A stretch of 63,997 nt of DNA, counting the filler, from Candidatus Babelota bacterium (GTDB lineage Bacteria > JAGOBX01): assembly GCA_017999075.1 (NCBI GenBank). It is 13 parts of 13 records of this genome, joined end to end, with 100 filler letters (N's around TTAATTAATTAA, not from the genome) between each part and the next. Parts side by side here need not be neighbours in the genome. Positions count along the whole stretch, not along the records: positions 1 to 4,894 come from JAGOBX010000310.1; 12 more parts are not named here. The stretch is one strand, 5' to 3'. The translations under genes and the position numbers were made by a program. Positions 1 through 14,965 of the stretch are shown piece after piece; position 1 is the first letter of the stretch; each line of letters begins with the position of its first letter. The notes beneath the pieces were generated by a model that was not told where the DNA came from, ran no database searches, and was given only the letters and a program-made list of their open reading frames with translations.

Positions 1-116
1 GCGTGATTGATTCGATAACCGCTCGAGAGCTTTTCCATATTGCGATTAACTCGGAATGTTAAATTTGTAAGATTTCTATGCGCGAAATCCGCAGGTATAT
101 TGTGTTGAATTCTCAT
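1..116 (-). CDS. fliC: Flagellin, N-terminal fragment (truncated at window start; absent from the ORF track)
   Basis: Manual translation from the ATG at 116 gives MRIQHNIPADFAHRNLTNLTFRVNRNMEKLSSGYRINH, matching the flagellin N-terminal signature (MRIxHN...EKLSSGxRIN). GGAGG RBS just upstream; sigma-28 promoter further upstream. Confidence 0.88.
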   Translation of the reverse strand, partial: MRIQHNIPADFAHRNLTNLTFRVNRNMEKLSSGYRINH

Positions 117-220
117 TCAGCCGCCTCCAAACGAGATATGTATAGAACTTCTCCCTTTGGCTGCACAAGGCAGTTATACAAATGTTGTATTACGATGTTT
201 TTTTTAGGTTTCCGTTCCAT
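113..220 (-). CDS. 35-aa upstream ORF overlapping the flagellin start (ATGA overlap)
   Basis: MERKPKKNIVIQHLYNCLVQPKGEVLYISRLEAAE*. Strong RBS CGGAGGAAAATAT-ATG; its TGA overlaps the flagellin ATG. Confidence 0.45.
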   Translation of the reverse strand: MERKPKKNIVIQHLYNCLVQPKGEVLYISRLEAAE

Positions 221-317
221 ATATTTTCCTCCGTGAAATATATCAATTACATAAAGCTGATAAACAGCTATATGCTATTGGTAAAAAATATCTAATATAT
301 TTCTATAAAGTCCTCCT

Positions 318-351
318 AAAATAAAAAATGCCCGCAATTATTTGCAGGCAT
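318..351 (-). terminator. Intrinsic terminator within the flagellin 5' leader
   Basis: Minus strand ATGCCTGCAA-ATAA-TTGCGGGCAT followed by TTTTTATTTT. Confidence 0.7.
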
Positions 352-468
352 CCTTACCTTAAATATTATCCATAAAATTAAATTATTTTTGCTGGGTCAA
401 TCAATCTCCAGCGTTGAAGGTCTCTTCAGTGAAGTCCAACCTTCTTCGTCTACAAATTAACATATTAT

Positions 469-495
469 ATATCGTCAATATGTTAAATAAACTTA
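469..495 (-). promoter_or_regulatory. Sigma-28 (FliA/SigD) promoter
   Basis: Minus strand TAAG-N15-GACGATAT versus consensus TAAA-N15-GCCGATAA/T; points toward the flagellin gene. Confidence 0.7.
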
Positions 496-722
496 AGATT
501 TATTTATCAAAATTTTATAACCGTTTATTTATCAATATATTGGTTGAAAATATATTTCCCTTATATCCCGATTTTTACAGAAAAAAATTATAGAAATTTC
601 TAATATGCCATTATTTTGGATATCCTGTCTTGGAGATTATGCTTTTCTTCGGAACCAATTACGGAGTTCCGAGCCACCTGGTCTTGCCTATTAGAAATCC
701 TAATTCAATTATAAAATAATGG

Positions 723-761
723 AAGCCGTTCGAGCCTTGAAAAGCTTGGGCGGCTTTTTTT
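723..761 (+). terminator. Intrinsic terminator
   Basis: AAGCCGTTCGAGC / GCTTGGGCGGCTT 13-bp stem with G-U pairs, followed by a T run. Confidence 0.75.
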
Positions 762-942
762 ATTTCCGCTACTAAATTCACACATTAACGACTTATCCGA
801 ACAACTGGAGGTGATGAAAAGTCTCGGAAGTCCCTGCATTCTCAGCAAATTCTATCAATTATTTTAGTCCTGCCTACGAATCCTTCACTAGTATCGAGTT
901 CATAATTTTTCATTAAATTTCCTACGGGAGAGGTGTGTACAA

Positions 943-1080
943 ATGAAGAAATTGTTTATTTTGTTAATGAAATGCGCGCTGATTTTTCTCTTTTCAATGT
1001 TATTTGCAATGTGGACTGGAGCTGTAATGTTTTTCTTGATGATTGGAACTGCAATTCGTAATTACTCTGCTAAAAAATAA
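943..1080 (+). CDS. 45-aa small hydrophobic membrane peptide
   Basis: MKKLFILLMKCALIFLFSMLFAMWTGAVMFFLMIGTAIRNYSAKK*; RBS GAGAGGTG upstream; below the ORF-track cutoff. Confidence 0.6.
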   Translation: MKKLFILLMKCALIFLFSMLFAMWTGAVMFFLMIGTAIRNYSAKK

Positions 1081-1179
1081 TGCCGCTTTTTTTCCTGCCT
1101 ATAACTCCGCTACTGCTGCCGCCCTGGCTATGATTCTATTTTTATTTTATTAAATCTATTTAAAGGATGGTGTTATTTT

Positions 1180-1488
1180 ATGTGGAAAAAACCAAGTTTA
1201 TCAGTTTTAAAAACTGTGCCTGATCTTTATTCAACTGAGAATGTAAGCTGCAAAGACAAATTAATTTATCTGCATTTTTTCATCGGAAATTGCGACTGGT
1301 ATATTGCTGAAATTGATCACAGTGATTTTGATCTGATGTTCGGGTATTGCATTCTCAACGGAGATCTTGAAATGGCAGAATGGGGCTACGTTTCATTATC
1401 TGAACTTGCTGCTATCAATGTCCGCGGAATTGAAGTTGACCGTGATCTTTACTGGGATGTAAAGCTGTTCTCTAGTATCAAGCTGTAA
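1180..1488 (+). CDS. DUF2958 family protein (mobile-element associated)
   Basis: Pattern P.LY.TE...FF....WY..E.D...FG......E.GY.SL.EL...I..DRD.YW is typical of DUF2958; RBS AAGGATGG. Confidence 0.8.
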   Translation: MWKKPSLSVLKTVPDLYSTENVSCKDKLIYLHFFIGNCDWYIAEIDHSDFDLMFGYCILNGDLEMAEWGYVSLSELAAINVRGIEVDRDLYWDVKLFSSIKL

Positions 1489-1507
1489 TCCGTAAGAAAA
1501 TAATCCG

Positions 1508-1525
1508 CGCATTTTTGCCTTATAT
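1508..1525 (+). repeat. 18-nt intergenic direct repeat CGCATTTTTGCCTTATAT, copy 1
   Basis: Identical copy at 2191-2208; both follow a stop codon. Confidence 0.8.
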
Positions 1526-1569
1526 ACGACAGTATATATCGCGCGATTTTCTATCATCATTACTCACCG

Positions 1570-1614
1570 CACAAAGAGCCGAGTATGCCGTTATGGTGTA
1601 TTCGGCTTTTTGTG
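1570..1614 (+). terminator. Long-stem intrinsic terminator
   Basis: CACAAAGAGCCGAGTATGCC / GGTGTATTCGGCTTTTTGTG 20-bp stem with G-U pairs on the + strand and an embedded T run. Confidence 0.7.
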
Positions 1615-1708
1615 TTTATAGCCGCAATTTATTTAATAAACGCTACTTATCCAACCTAATTTCTTATCATTAATTTTCAATACTAAATTTATCATGGAGG
1701 TTTTTACT

Positions 1709-2188
1709 ATGGACAAAATCTGTCTTATTGGGTCAAGAACCCTTACCGATGAGATGATCCTTGACCTGCATTCTACATTGGATCAGCTTACTGCATCAAA
1801 GCAACCTGTATTTTCTACAGGTGGATGCGCTGGCATTTCCATTGAAGCAGTAAAGTACTTTATCGCTAAAGGCGATTGCTCTAAAGTTCATATCTGGCTG
1901 GCGAAGAAGCTTGAAAACATTCCGATAGTGGTTAAACCGTTTATCCATCAAGCAATAAAAATGGGCGCGATTATCATTGAATCTCATTGCAACCAATATC
2001 TTGCGGGCATTATCAGTCGAAACAAGGAAATGCTGGCTGACTGCGATATCTGTAACGCCTACCGCTTGAACAGAAGCTTGGGCACTACGCACGAACTGAA
2101 CTATGCCGCACAATACCACAAGTCAATTCTGCTACACGACTACGACACACTACAATTAAAGTTACCGCTATTTCATTTAGAAAAATAA
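1709..2188 (+). CDS. SLOG-superfamily (DprA/Smf/YspA-like) protein
   Basis: ICLIGSR, STGGCAG, SRNKEML and S.GT..E...A motifs of the SLOG fold. GGAGG RBS favours the ATG at 1709 over 1694. Confidence 0.7.
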   Translation: MDKICLIGSRTLTDEMILDLHSTLDQLTASKQPVFSTGGCAGISIEAVKYFIAKGDCSKVHIWLAKKLENIPIVVKPFIHQAIKMGAIIIESHCNQYLAGIISRNKEMLADCDICNAYRLNRSLGTTHELNYAAQYHKSILLHDYDTLQLKLPLFHLEK

Positions 2189-2190
2189 CC

Positions 2191-2208
2191 CGCATTTTTG
2201 CCTTATAT
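2191..2208 (+). repeat. 18-nt intergenic direct repeat CGCATTTTTGCCTTATAT, copy 2
   Basis: Identical to 1508-1525. Confidence 0.8.
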
Positions 2209-2285
2209 GCAGAAAAATAGGCCATTTTTTTATTCATTTCACTTCATTACAAATTTAAATTTTATAACAAGGAGTTGATGTCATT

Positions 2286-2486
2286 ATGGCATATCCGTTT
2301 GAGAGGAGCTGTACTATCCCGTATGAAACCAGTACAAAACTTAAAATTCTGGCTACCGCTGAAGGAATTCCAATTACCAAAATGATCGTTAAAATTATTG
2401 ACGAGTATTATCTCTATACAGATATCGATAAAATCAAAGCTGCAAAAATTAAACTTAATATTCAGGCAGGTGATCGCAATGTCTAA
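2286..2486 (+). CDS. Small ribbon-helix-helix-like DNA-binding protein
   Basis: 66 aa with a strand-helix-helix pattern (RSCTIP..TSTKLKILA.AEGIPITKMIVKIIDEY); RBS AAGGAG; stop overlaps the integrase start. Confidence 0.55.
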   Translation: MAYPFERSCTIPYETSTKLKILATAEGIPITKMIVKIIDEYYLYTDIDKIKAAKIKLNIQAGDRNV

Positions 2487-3312
2487 TCAAGAATTAATAT
2501 CCAAATTTATTGATCAAATGCTATTGCAGGGCAAAGCTAATTCTACTATCGGAACATACGCTTCACACGTTGGACAACTGGCTAAATGGATTGACTGTGA
2601 CCTTTCTCAAGTTACAGATGAAATGATACGCTGCTATTTTCTCAATCTCAGAACCAGTGTACCAGAAGCTGAACAGTATTATAATTCAGCTATCAGCGCA
2701 ATTAAATTGTTTGTAGAATCAACCCTCAAGCGTAAATGGATTGGGCTCGATTACATTAAGGTCAGGCATCATAAACTGAAAGAAGTATTAACCCCTGAAG
2801 AAGTCAAATACCTGCTTGAATCAATAACGAACCTCAAGCATAAGTGTATCCTTGGCTTACTATATAGCTCGATGCTCAGGCTAAATGAGGTGGTCCATCT
2901 CAAAGTCAAAGGCGATATTGATTCAAGTCAGATGATCGTTAATGTCCGAGTAGCCAAAGGCGGCAAGGAGCGCATTACAATTTTATCAGACAAAGTACTA
3001 GGCTGGTTGCGCGAATATTTCAAACAGTATCATCCAAAGGAAAGGCTCTTTGAAGGCCAGAATCCAGGTTCACACATTACGGGCAGAACGGTCGAACATA
3101 TTATGGAACAAGCATTGGACCGCTGCTGCATTGATAAGAAAGTAAGTCCTCACGGCTTACGCAGAACTGGCGCATCTCATTTGTTAGAATCTGGCGTTGA
3201 TCTACGCACAATACAGATTTTACTAGGACATAGCGATATTTCAACCAGTACGATTTACCTGCAAGTCTCTACAAGCCATATCTCAAAGATCAAAAGCTTA
3301 TTGGATAAATAA
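2479..3312 (+). CDS. Tyrosine recombinase with N-terminal SAM-like domain (integron-integrase-like/XerD-like, about 277 aa)
   Basis: Catalytic residues R (MLRLNE), K (AKGGK), HxxR (HGLRR), LGH and Y (STIY); HLLESGVDLRTIQILLGH motif. Start at 2479 supported by an AGGTGA RBS. Confidence 0.92.
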   Translation: MSNQELISKFIDQMLLQGKANSTIGTYASHVGQLAKWIDCDLSQVTDEMIRCYFLNLRTSVPEAEQYYNSAISAIKLFVESTLKRKWIGLDYIKVRHHKLKEVLTPEEVKYLLESITNLKHKCILGLLYSSMLRLNEVVHLKVKGDIDSSQMIVNVRVAKGGKERITILSDKVLGWLREYFKQYHPKERLFEGQNPGSHITGRTVEHIMEQALDRCCIDKKVSPHGLRRTGASHLLESGVDLRTIQILLGHSDISTSTIYLQVSTSHISKIKSLLDK

Positions 3313-3389
3313 TTGGCATTATTTAAAGGCAAGCCAAATAAATAGGCGGCATTTTTTCTCGTCATTACATTTTACGAATATTTTCACAT

Positions 3390-3424
3390 AAGGCGCGGCG
3401 CTGTAATAGCTCTGCGCCTTTTTT
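3390..3424 (+). terminator. Intrinsic terminator between the integrase and GGDEF genes
   Basis: AAGGCGCGGCGCT / AGCTCTGCGCCTT stem followed by a T run. Confidence 0.7.
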
Positions 3425-3457
3425 ATTTAAAACCAAAATCAAAGGAGTTGAATTACA

Positions 3458-3958
3458 ATGGTCAAGTATATTAAAGCCATTTTTATTACTATCAAAGTTT
3501 CTTTTTACATTTTCAGTGAAGCATTAGAACAGACGGACATTCATCACTTGGTTGGACTAAAGGACGCATTAACGGGATTATTCAACAGAAAATATTTCAA
3601 TTACTACACAGCTAAAAACAGCAAAAACATCAAGGGCTACATCATGCTGGACGTGGATCACTTCAAAACGATAAATGACACTCTCGGACACGACGCGGGC
3701 GACTCAACACTAATAAAATTAGCTGACTTTTTACGCACTATTCCCGCTGATTGCAAATTATTCCGCTTTGCTGGGGATGAATTCGTGATTACAGTTACTG
3801 ATAAAAAACTATTAGCGATCATTTCCCGTTACATCCGTTATAATGTTTATTCCGCCGTTGGCATCAATTGCAGTATCGGAGCAGGTTCAGACTGGAAGAC
3901 AAGCGACATAGCTTTGTATCAGTCTAAGGTTACCAGAGGCAGATATACAATTCTCTAA
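3458..3958 (+). CDS. Stand-alone GGDEF-domain protein (diguanylate cyclase, AGDEF variant)
   Basis: DALTGLFNRKYF, MLDVDHFKTINDTLGHDAGD, RFAGDEF, SIG and D.ALY.SK motifs; RBS AAGGAG. Confidence 0.88.
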   Translation: MVKYIKAIFITIKVSFYIFSEALEQTDIHHLVGLKDALTGLFNRKYFNYYTAKNSKNIKGYIMLDVDHFKTINDTLGHDAGDSTLIKLADFLRTIPADCKLFRFAGDEFVITVTDKKLLAIISRYIRYNVYSAVGINCSIGAGSDWKTSDIALYQSKVTRGRYTIL

Positions 3959-3959
3959 T

Positions 3960-4894
3960 AATATCCTCCGATAGAATTAATTCATTACAGGCACATTTTC
4001 CGTTATCAAGAGTATGTCATAAAGCAGCGGCAGTCAAACTTGATTCAGTAAAAAAATACGGCGCGATTTTCCATAATCCACTAATTTTTTTCCTGAACAA
4101 ATAGCTATTGTGACAGCCGCTTCTGCTTTATGATTTAATATTTGTTCTAAGCGGAAAATGTGTCTCTCTTCTACGCAAGATAGACTTTTTCAAGTTTGGT
4201 GTATTTGGAATATTGACTTGTATTCTATGCGCTTCAAGTTATTTCATTTCACTCGCTCGCCTATACGGTCTTTGAAGATTGTGTAGGCGGGCGATTATTG
4301 TTTTCTTATTGGATTTAGATTCACATTGCGCCGATTGTCATTGTTCTTTGTTTTCGCTGTGGGTATAGCAAGTTGGCTATCCAGCGAAAACATCCACCAT
4401 CTACATTGCAATTTTAACGTTTTTCTTGCTTATTACGGAAATTGCAATTTCGATGGCGGTAGTTAAATTCAAATACCTTTTTACATTCTATGCCGCAACG
4501 GCGTATAATATATATTATAACGCCATTGCTTATCATTGGTTCTATATGGAAATAATTGCCCGTTCGTCAACTTTGCAGTTGGACGACAGGCAATTATATT
4601 ATTTTAATTTTCTACAGCGACTGGGATTGGATTATAGCGGAACAATAATCGCCTATAGTATTCCGACTATATACCTGGGGAACACTGCTGGAGCCTTTAT
4701 GGTCTGACAGGGGTGCGGGGATAATACCGAAATAATTGTATAAAAAATTAGACTATTAAATTAGTTTGGGACTATCTCAATATTGTTATAATTGCAATAG
4801 CGACAATTTTACAATTTTTCTCAAAGGACAATAAATTGCAAATGTTGTAATTATCTAATATATTATACTTTTATTACTCGAAATCGTCGTAAGG
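3960..4894 (+). ncRNA. Candidate large structured ncRNA or structured ssDNA element (unclassified; truncated at contig end)
   Basis: At least 7 consecutive hairpins (3989-4165, 4253-4294, 4349-4392, 4394-4459, 4495-4529, 4552-4597, ~4624-4664) and no convincing CDS. Strand is uncertain. Confidence 0.4.
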
Positions 4895-9870: not shown

Positions 9871-9980
9871 AATTTTTTATNNNNNNNNNNNNNNNNNNNN
9901 NNNNNNNNNNNNNNNNNNNNNNNNTTAATTAATTAANNNNNNNNNNNNNNNNNNNNNNNNNNNNNNNNNNNNNNNNNNNN

Positions 9981-13155: not shown

Positions 13156-13719
13156 CTAAATTCTATCCTCTAAAAAATTCTTTAAATAATAACGTAAATG
13201 TCTGTGTATTATAGCACCAGAATGCTTTCTTTCTGTAAAAAAATATGATAGGTTATATCGTATATTAAAACTATGTAAAGTTCCTAAAATAGCGTTTGCA
13301 TTCATTTTTACGCTATAATTATTTGTGCAGATATCCTGATAGGCGTTTGGATTTTCAACAATCAGAATAGTATTACGTTTTTGTTTATTTAAGTTTGCTT
13401 CAAATTCTTCGCGTTCATACGAAAATTTAACTGCAAGGCTGTTTAAACTATTTTCCCGTATTACTGTAACATCTGTATCGAAGTACATATCCCTTTGAAT
13501 GTTCTTTTCAACACAAGCATGTAAGCATACCGAGTACTGACCAAAATCCAACGCTGTAACTTTTGTGCGGATATTGTTTGTATTGAAATAGTCCAAAGTA
13601 TGCTGACTTTTTTCTTTCTCGTCTATCAGTATTGTCATTTGCGACAATAACTCTTTAAGTTTTTTTTCTGTGTAATGTTGTTTCATTTTATACCCCCAAA
13701 AATAATTAAATATATTCAC
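13156..13719 (-). CDS. ERCC4/XPF nuclease-fold protein with degenerate catalytic motif (likely start MKQHY at 13686)
   Basis: Layout of phage ERCC4 proteins (ILID..EK...L..G.Y.....V...SL..L...R..FE...LIVE), but GD..ERK..D reads GQ..IREN..S. Confidence 0.7.
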   Translation of the reverse strand: MNIFNYFWGYKMKQHYTEKKLKELLSQMTILIDEKEKSQHTLDYFNTNNIRTKVTALDFGQYSVCLHACVEKNIQRDMYFDTDVTVIRENSLNSLAVKFSYEREEFEANLNKQKRNTILIVENPNAYQDICTNNYSVKMNANAILGTLHSFNIRYNLSYFFTERKHSGAIIHRHLRYYLKNFLEDRI

Positions 13720-13780
13720 AGCATAAATACTAATTCACTAAATTCTTTAAATCTTTTAAGGACTATGGCACTGAAATAGT

Positions 13781-14865
13781 TTAAAATTTTTTTTCATAAG
13801 GTATTAATCTTCCTTCCGTATCAAAAGTTGCTTTTGCTTCTTTAATCCAGCGTTTCATCAATACATATTCTGTTTTAACTTTAACATCAGGACATACAAT
13901 ATTCATACTATCAATCATAATCTTACTTATTTTCTCTGCTTCTTCGCGATGGTTACAATTTTCAATCGGCAATTCAATAATAACTTCATCGTGAATGAAT
14001 GCAACAACGCGGTATCCGCGCTTAATAAGTCGATACAAAGCAATTTTTGCACCGTCAGCGGCTAGTCCTTGAAACGGAGTATTACGCGAGGCGCAAAATG
14101 TAATATTTGAGCGTATGCGTCCAGTTAAAGTTTCCGCAGTCAGATTGCCTTCAAATAAAGCACGGGCTAATTTAGGACTACCAGTTTTTGTATAAATTTC
14201 GCCGGTAAATTTTTCTTTTCCTTCAAATTCAATCTCTTCAATTTTCGACCAAGCCCAATCTTTTTCTTCTTGTGTATATTCCCTTTCAGTGGTTTTGGTT
14301 TTATTAAGTCCTGATATAATTCCTTTCAAGGTATATACAGCATATTCATTATCTTTTTTTGTTTGAGTGTAATAATCAGATAAATCATATTTTTTCCGGA
14401 ATTTTGTTATAAAATCATTTTCAAGATAATTCCGCATTTCAGGGAAATTTTTCAACCATTTTTCTTTCAAATCTTTTGCCTGCTGCTCTGTTAATATTAT
14501 GCCGTATGTGTTTTTCGCAAATTGTATAAAACTTTTTATACCGAGACCGCCAGGAAACCCGAAGTTTGCAGATTTAGCAGTCTGTCTTTCTTCGGCAGTG
14601 ATATCAGATATACTTTTATTATAAATCAAAGCGGCGAACCATATATGCAAGTCCTGACCACTGTTTATTATTTCAAGCATTTTTGAACTACCAAATTTTT
14701 TGAATATAATTAACGCAAGCGTTATAAGTTCAATCTGAGAATAATCGACTGCAAGCAATAAATATCCTTCAGTCGGAATAAATACTTCGCGTGGTCTGCC
14801 TTTTCGCGGCAAATTTTGAACATTAGGTTTTGAGCAAGATGTTCTGCCAGTTGCTACGATCAAAC
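13781..14865 (-). CDS. Phage-type DNA polymerase family A, C-terminal polymerase domain (5' truncated)
   Basis: TGRTSCSKPNVQNLP, motif A DYSQIEL, motif B R..AK..NFG, NTPFQG.AAD, motif C IHDEV. Confidence 0.92.
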
Positions 14866-14965
14866 NNNNNNNNNNNNNNNNNNNNNNNNNNNNNNNNNNN
14901 NNNNNNNNNTTAATTAATTAANNNNNNNNNNNNNNNNNNNNNNNNNNNNNNNNNNNNNNNNNNNN

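Follow-up and report, generated by a model that had tools for sequence, protein, structure and literature searches.

The window analysed here, 63,997 nt of DNA from a Candidatus Babelota bacterium (GCA_017999075.1), is composed of 13 contigs of about 4.9 kb each that are linked by 12 artificial joiners, and features were not to be read across these joiners. Its positions 1-4894 are the entire contig C456 of the assembly (G000; 3.83 Mb in 594 contigs, 87% complete). This contig carries six plus-strand genes, all of them preceded by a Shine-Dalgarno (SD) site (6/6), and the last one encodes a small GGDEF/mCpol-like protein. The subject of this work is the stretch directly behind that gene, positions 3960-4894, which forms the 3' end of the contig (base 4894 is its last base) and contains six hairpins, H1 to H6, together with a predicted terminator and a predicted promoter. 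An initial annotation had described it as about 930 nt of back-to-back hairpins and as a candidate for one new large non-coding RNA (ncRNA) or one element folded as single-stranded DNA (ssDNA). We find that the stretch is strongly folded, non-coding and conserved, and that it reads best as several separate, ordinary kinds of element and not as one molecule.

The whole region folds far better than shuffled sequence, with z-scores of -8.71 on the plus strand, -11.45 on the minus strand and -7.71 with DNA parameters, and in each case 0 of 20 shuffles were as good, so that the comparison with shuffled controls turned out in favour of the initial annotation on both strands. Taken singly, each of H1 to H6 was matched by 0 of 200 shuffles. 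As the hairpin boundaries were set after seeing the fold, the single-hairpin z-scores are somewhat flattering, a problem of which the whole-region scores are free. Every stem that had been claimed is present, displaced by a few bases at most, and H1 to H6 are significant, but the seventh, placed at ~4624-4664 and found by us at ~4630-4662, is a weak stem of -6.2 kcal and z -1.9 that 10 of 200 shuffles equalled. Because this stem and the segments 4167-4252 (z -0.9), 4598-4720 (z -0.06) and 4787-4853 (z -2.1) fold like shuffles, the significantly structured span is 3989-4597, that is about 610 nt instead of 930. The region holds five exact inverted-repeat seeds (at least 9 nt with at least 3 G/C and a spacer of at most 160), a number reached by 37 of 33,015 windows of 935 nt across the genome, the region's own windows included. 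Of the four most repeat-dense contigs, three visibly contain iterated motifs and not differing hairpins; C279 is the fourth. A background of 120-nt sliding-window minimum free energy (MFE) values, which comprises C1-C153 only (14,282 windows) and splits hairpins, was not relied on; its top regions are coding and without an Rfam hit.

No open reading frame (ORF) led by an SD site is present on either strand of 3960-4894. The longest ORF (4426-4707, 93 aa) had 0 hits in 1.84 billion representative proteins and no Pfam hit, and in a variant contig it contains indels of +2 and -1. Indels that are not a multiple of three also separate the variants at 4174-4175 and 4246 (1- and 2-nt, window against the related locus L002 introduced below) and at 4659 and 4676, in line with the earlier statement that no credible coding sequence is found here. 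The absence of a match to a known family was likewise confirmed, as Rfam 15, which includes GOLLD, ROOL, HEARO, group II intron domains and RNAI, gave 0 matches at gathering thresholds for the whole window, and at E up to 5 positions 3400-4894 gave only chance-level hits to CRISPR-DR2 (19.7 bits versus 37) and RAGATH-7 (16.3 versus 111.8). Elsewhere in the assembly no copy of the hairpins was detected besides the self-match, and since no part of the stretch recurs there, repeats of the MITE (miniature inverted-repeat transposable element) or REP (repetitive extragenic palindrome) type are ruled out as far as an 87% complete genome permits. A blastn search in 'distant' mode with 3960-4894 against 72,556 plasmids and against phages gave no match, and no homologous DNA was present in 60 other genomes. 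The collection searched has no more than four genomes of the phylum; the three others showed no match to the hairpin region, and their sole match is a 47-nt one (82% identity, E 6e-4) between G003 and the beginning of the GGDEF gene. When viral contigs were scanned for exact patterns from H2, from the stems of H1 and from H5, nothing was found, and nothing came from scans with single proteins (the GGDEF protein in genome contigs, the recombinase of the same contig in viral contigs) and with the GGDEF alignment in viral contigs. Against genome contigs this alignment retrieved 80 generic GGDEF proteins with at most 45% identity, which were not used.

For the comparison of homologous DNA we used L002 (1,025 nt, ~90% identical), which covers the GGDEF gene and its downstream region up to ~4375; a metagenome scan with the GGDEF alignment listed at least this one locus. 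Between the window and L002 the GGDEF gene differs at 72 of 501 bases, 53 of them third positions (53/167), and at 19 of its 51 4-fold sites (37%). The non-coding DNA behind the gene (Table 1) is several-fold less diverged than these neighbouring 4-fold codon sites, and therefore the hairpin stretch, judged by its sequence, is under purifying selection. In the full 387-nt MFE fold, changes relative to L002 amount to 24 in 250 paired and 23 in 137 unpaired positions, a borderline difference (p = 0.05) in a fold that includes doubtful long-range pairs. Variant contigs from run X2 show the same tendency, their non-coding pieces having 21+3 differences in 269 and 15+5 in 312 positions (91-94% identical) versus 26 in 182 (86%) for a coding piece. 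Such variants occur in public runs of three studies on wastewater, digester and biogas samples; runs X5 and X6 cover small shares of the stretch, and the parts that they leave uncovered are not read as absence.

Table 1. Features of the first contig of the window and their divergence from the related locus L002.
Feature	Position	Strand	Properties	Differences from L002
45-aa hydrophobic ORF	943-1080	+	SD-led	
DUF2958 gene	1180-1488	+	SD-led	
Weakly SLOG-like protein	1709-2188	+	LDcluster4 18.3 bits, below cut-off	
66-aa ORF	2286-2486	+	ribbon-helix-helix (RHH)-like by eye only; 0 Pfam hits	
Tyrosine recombinase, Xer-like	most likely 2479-3312	+	SD-led ATG at 2479	
Upstream intergenic DNA	3350-3457			5/108
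Small GGDEF/mCpol-like gene	3458-3958	+	166 aa, AGDEF motif; SD and ATG; hairpin region directly downstream	
H1, rod-like imperfect hairpin	3989-4166	+	-63.3 kcal, z -8.34; 178 nt; 30 nt past GGDEF stop	13 substitutions + 3 gap positions in 178 (9%)
Spacer	4167-4252			11 + 3 in 86
H2, hairpin resembling an intrinsic (Rho-independent) terminator, T-rich tail	4253-4304 (stem 4253-4294)	+	z -8.26	1/42 (2%) in 4253-4294
Segment past H2	4295-4335			2/41
H3, 11-bp perfect inverted repeat, structured 22-nt loop	4349-4392		z -4.70	
H4, 26-nt inverted repeat, 81% complementary	4389-4464		z -4.85; ATTGCAAT in each arm	
Near-consensus sigma-70-type promoter TTTACA-18-TATAAT (predicted)	4480-4509	+	11/12 matches; best of 22 on contig	
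H5, 35-bp near-perfect palindrome, ~13-bp arms, AT spacer	4495-4529		z -3.66; covers -10 box and predicted start	
H6, 46-nt hairpin (4552-4597), then ATTATTTTAATTTTC	4552-4612	+	z -4.79; ~36 nt past predicted start	
AT-rich tail	4598-4894		not significantly structured; two more ATTGCAA(T/A) sites, two weak + promoters	
Weak promoter-like sites	4808-4837, 4836-4864	+	9/12	
Artificial contig joiner	4895-4994		N44-TTAATTAATTAA-N44; others e.g. 9881-9980, 14866-14965	

The largest of the hairpins, H1, folds 5.7 kcal better on the plus than on the minus strand and has three G-U pairs on plus versus one on minus. Its changes relative to L002 are confined to internal loops, the weak sub-stem 4010-4015/4138-4143 and the apex, and the strong stems are identical. 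Four relatives of the GGDEF protein (P0001-P0004) show 80-93% identity, and in one of them, the 80% identical P0003, which is known as a protein only, the stop codon is missing and translation continues across H1. After back-translation of the P0003 tail to degenerate letters and alignment to the window, 16 of the 65 H1 pairs were uncovered, 41 unchanged or compatible and one kept via a change on one side, while two showed changes on both sides, two fell on gaps and three were broken. Of these three, two belong to the apical mini-stem and the other is a G-U pair. At the pair 4048:4093 the change from G:C to T:A is unambiguous and compensatory. H1 follows the GGDEF gene wherever the downstream DNA is visible, namely in the window, in L002, in the P0003 tail and in contigs of runs X1, X2 and X6; no rod is present downstream of the paralogous GGDEF gene on contig C205. 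Within H1 no promoter-like site of at least 9/12 was found. The lower divergence than at 4-fold sites, the kept stems, the compensatory pair and the sharply bounded island described further below agree with the earlier proposal that the structure is under selection and part of a mobile element. We also noticed a resemblance between the H1 apex and the tail of the hairpin behind the DUF2958 gene.

H2 was called by the terminator scan with 19 pairs (9 of them G-C), a loop of 4 nt and the tail TTATTGTTTT, and thus combines the G+C-rich stem, the short loop and the T-rich tail on the presumably transcribed strand by which intrinsic terminators are recognised. Its energy is -30.8 kcal on the plus versus -17.2 kcal on the minus strand, a gap of 13.6 kcal. 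Alignment of the two arms gives five non-Watson-Crick positions, loop-proximal positions included, all of which are of the G-U type on plus and none on minus, the same signature as in two further terminators of the contig at 715-765 and 1567-1616. The initial annotation had likewise noted G-U pairs on plus throughout, for a stem given as 18 bp with four such pairs. H2 most likely ends the GGDEF transcript, which would therefore place H1 inside a 3' untranslated region (3'UTR) of about 340 nt. That most of the stems lack U tails, as had been stated, is true in general and not for H2 and H6.

Behind the predicted terminator follow two hairpins, of which H3 has the same energy on both strands and a T tail on neither. 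Copies of the palindrome ATTGCAAT start at 4405, 4441 and 4791, and ATTGCAAA is found at 4835; three ATTGCAAT sites in these 935 nt compare with four in the window's other ~59 kb, an enrichment that was spotted post hoc. The promoter-like sequence is overlapped by H5, for which the sequence suggests two candidate roles, as an operator-like site or as a lox/dif-like core site. Run X5 contains a 154-nt contig that matches only 4495-4530 (36 nt with 3 differences) between flanks unlike those of the window, and by eye it shows TTTACT before H5, with the 9-nt spacing that TTTACA has in the window; of all pieces, H5 with its promoter is therefore the one best conserved in this distant relative. No second copy of H5 was detected in its own genome (at most 5 mismatches), in 100 other genomes (at most 3 mismatches) or in viral contigs. 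H6 is followed by a tail that is T-rich when read by eye, and is a candidate attenuator or small RNA terminator. Its apical part differs in the variants of runs X2 and X6, where a hairpin is still possible (loose ends, by eye). The wobble bias is mixed, with H1 and H2 pointing to the plus and H4-H6 slightly to the minus strand; an ambiguity of the strand had been noted at the outset.

We tentatively interpret the stretch as a composite control region of an integrative island, which consists of a structured 3'UTR with its terminator, a regulated promoter region and a short leader or small RNA, and we hold this interpretation with slightly less than even confidence. Positions 3959-4304 would represent the long 3' untranslated tail of the GGDEF/mCpol-like gene with H1 inside and the H2 terminator at its end. 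Positions 4349-4529 would serve as promoter region, with H3 and the ATTGCAAT-bearing H4 upstream of the sigma-70 promoter and with H5 over the -10 box and the start site, where it most likely binds a dimeric regulator. From ~4516 a short transcript or leader would form H6 and either stop at the U-rich tail or continue into a gene past the contig end. The first part would resemble intrinsic terminators with long 3'UTRs or 3'UTR-derived RNAs, given the composition of H2 on the strand of the gene and the place of H1 between stop codon and terminator, but at 340 nt, and with a conserved rod of 178 nt inside, this 3'UTR would greatly exceed the usual size, and the transcript ends are predicted ones. 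The second part would resemble the repressor-controlled promoters of phages, plasmids and islands, having an 11/12 match to the sigma-70 consensus under a 35-bp palindrome and ATTGCAAT palindromes up- and downstream; unlike in most operators, the arms of H5 are long, and the regulator is putative, the ORF 2286-2486 being RHH-like by eye only. The stretch may also bear comparison with lambda-type retroregulation and with the filamentous-phage intergenic region. If the composite interpretation is right, the stretch is a well-conserved but ordinary control region and a caution against calling dense runs of hairpins giant ncRNAs. H1 is worth attention for its size, its constant place behind the GGDEF gene and its stems, which are unchanged where neutral sites differ by about one third; Rfam holds nothing comparable. 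Its island belongs to a barely sampled phylum.

Several observations weigh against this composite interpretation. For H4, H5 and H6 the minus-strand fold is the better one by 4-5 kcal, and each contains one A-C mismatch on plus, which a simple plus-strand RNA does not fit. The 22 promoter-like sites on the contig compare with 20.1 +/- 5.0 in shuffles, so that the promoter call draws on the score and the position of the site only. H6 was not called by the terminator scan, and its arms of 21 bp are long for a protein operator. A 3'UTR of 340 nt with a 178-nt rod is not ordinary. The comparative set consists of L002, which reaches to ~4375, and one back-translated protein tail, and so bears on H1 and H2 and hardly on H3-H6. 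Finally, no RNA run with the stretch was among the public sequencing runs listed, and transcript ends and strand are predictions.

Alternatively, some or all of the hairpins could act in the ssDNA of a mobilisable or rolling-circle-type island, as single-strand origin or priming site, Frpo/ssi-like promoter, oriT hairpins or folded attachment site, which we regard as unlikely. Folding is good with DNA parameters as well (z -7.71), mixed strand signals are expected if DNA symmetry and not one RNA strand is selected, the next gene is hidden by the contig end, and the island is horizontally acquired (GC content 36.6% versus 30.2% for the genome) and encodes a tyrosine recombinase and a DUF2958 protein. 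H1 resembles plasmid single-strand origins and Frpo in size and rod shape; its CTTGAT string, a pC194/phiX-like motif, is changed in L002. H2 fits RNA, since on one strand each of its five non-Watson-Crick positions is a G-U, and it has a U-tail. No similarity to the plasmid or phage records searched was found, and neither island contig (C456 or its relative C305, see below) carries a relaxase, Rep or conjugation gene; no oriT was seen on the 4.9-kb contig either. The ssDNA promoters Frpo and ssi of plasmid leading regions share with our stretch the long imperfect hairpin (for H1 also size and rod shape), the mobile element and the co-directed genes (PMC11541004). In Frpo the -35 and -10 elements are paired within the stem of a long hairpin (PMC11541004), but neither H1 nor any other long stem contains such a -35/-10 pair (at least 9/12). 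For H5, and possibly other palindromes, a function as lox/dif-type core site of the island's Xer-like recombinase seems improbable, and would be compatible with the composite control region. The ~13-bp inverted arms around a short AT-rich spacer of 6-8 bp correspond to the lox/dif/Xer architecture, with binding being putative; the best model of the recombinase is of XerA type, the H5 36-mer has unrelated flanks in the contig of another study, as an att- or dif-like site would, and the 3' end of a tRNA-Cys gene is ~150 nt away from an island remnant. This proposal accounts for one hairpin of six, and it has to face the missing partner site in the genomes and viral contigs searched, the lack of a left-boundary repeat in 3959-4894, a fully symmetric spacer that would give no direction, and a perfect -10 box at the same site, with which an operator agrees just as well.

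Among the parts of the stretch, only H1 is left unexplained. Within the composite control region it would most likely be a processing or stability element of the mRNA or the source of a 3'UTR-derived RNA, a role that is a guess. It is also conceivable, at what we consider a rather low probability, that H1-H6 together make up a nucleic-acid module, new and dedicated to a Panoptes-like (mCpol/GGDEF plus SLOG-like) island in a barely sampled phylum, in which H1, whose divergence lies far below the neutral rate, would be no passive 3'UTR but a structured RNA or ssDNA partner of the GGDEF enzyme or the Xer-like recombinase, for example as sensor, primer-like substrate or folded attachment site. Very improbable in our view is the one large structured ncRNA of 600-900 nt that had been considered, even if its size range and mobile-element setting would be those of GOLLD, ROOL and HEARO and the very low folding energy on both strands, the conservation above neutral and the non-coding character fit it well. 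Neither these nor other Rfam covariance models match at gathering thresholds, apart from which only the two chance-level hits were seen; each hairpin is a local one, the spacers fold like shuffles (z -0.9 and -0.06) and no long-range pairing is supported, the wobble bias varies between the hairpins, and the span is interrupted by the strong plus-strand terminator H2 and a strong internal promoter. This interruption and the mixed bias, together with the limited extent of significant structure (3989-4597) and the lack of a -35/-10 pair in a long stem, also leave the concept of a single ~930-nt ncRNA or a single ssDNA element unsupported. Hardly any credence can be given to a decayed protein gene or a pile-up of inserted palindromic elements (MITE/REP-like). 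Frame +1 has only two in-frame stops from ~4190 to 4707 and its translation is hydrophobic by eye, but the 93-aa ORF lacks a homologue and a Pfam hit, the four indel sites break the frame, the DNA is more conserved than synonymous sites, unlike in decay, and no hairpin has a copy elsewhere in the 3.83-Mb assembly that insertion would predict.

The island itself became apparent from contig C305 (L095, 7,453 nt) of the same assembly, which matches C456 at 552-3654 with 79-83% identity and ends inside the GGDEF gene at its own contig end. The similarity starts sharply near C456:550. To the left of this boundary C305 carries genes with a ResIII domain (995 aa) and an N6_N4 methylase domain, and C456 has AT-rich DNA, in which 451-541 weakly matches (72-73%, ~90 nt) another contig of its own genome and a family-level relative. 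Because of the sharp boundary and the differing left flanks, the common block is an inserted island with a defined left end. A search of 3959-4894 for repeats of the left-boundary sequence found none, so that the right end of the island lies beyond the contig. The remnant already mentioned is located on C71 (L094) at 13606-14050 and comprises homologues of 715-840 and 1145-1193, with a DUF2958 ORF that is cut after 18 codons; a DUF4062 gene starts at 14252. The island recurs in wastewater and digester metagenomes. On C305 the counterpart of the SLOG-like gene region contains a different 256-aa ORF.

Regarding the proteins of the island, the recombinase is listed with a TTG start at 2398, by which it overlaps the 66-aa ORF, and from the sequence the SD-led ATG at 2479 is the more likely start. 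It scores highest with an XerA-type model, 'site-specific tyrosine recombinase/integron integrase', at 192.8 bits and thus below the cut-off of 220. Models of integron integrases match in two pieces and far under their cut-offs (TIGR02249 in two stretches with 132.4 bits versus 265, PRK15417 with 79.9 versus 435), so that the IntI-specific insert is missing. In attC arrays each cassette has one hairpin, enclosed by the core sites RYYYAAC and GTTRRRY. An integron attC array was considered and rejected, as the recombinase fails the IntI models and, by eye, the RYYYAAC...GTTRRRY cores are absent from the outer ends of H1-H6; GTTGGAC is seen only at the H6 apex. The GGDEF protein reaches 71.5 bits with Pfam GGDEF, 20.3 bits with mCpol (below its cut-off) and matches the NCBIfam GGDEF domain. 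The cyclases of mCpol type are reported to act in Panoptes anti-phage systems, and a literature search gave nothing relevant on DUF2958. A search with PADLOC 2023 gave no hit among the five island proteins. The weakly SLOG-like protein and the GGDEF protein with its sub-threshold mCpol match are located together on one island. Stand-alone GGDEF proteins with 33% identity over 97% of the 166-aa protein are present in four records of small enterobacterial plasmids of 4-9 kb (H35-H38).

The intergenic DNA behind the genes of the island (1500-1560, 2185-2250, 3340-3370 and 4055-4090) has short motifs in common. CGCATTTTTGCCTTATAT occurs twice, at 1508 and 2191, and has no copy with 0 mismatches elsewhere in the genome, GCGCGATTTTC is found at 1541 and 4061, and TCATTAC was counted four times by eye; no sibling contigs were found via these shared motifs. 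The densest inverted-repeat loci of the genome include a repeat on C417 that looks coding and two iteron-like loci, C205:1300-1700 with ACTTCGG/CCGAAGT and C259:6300-6500 with GGTGTGA around an AT-rich tract, which may be origins of other mobile elements.

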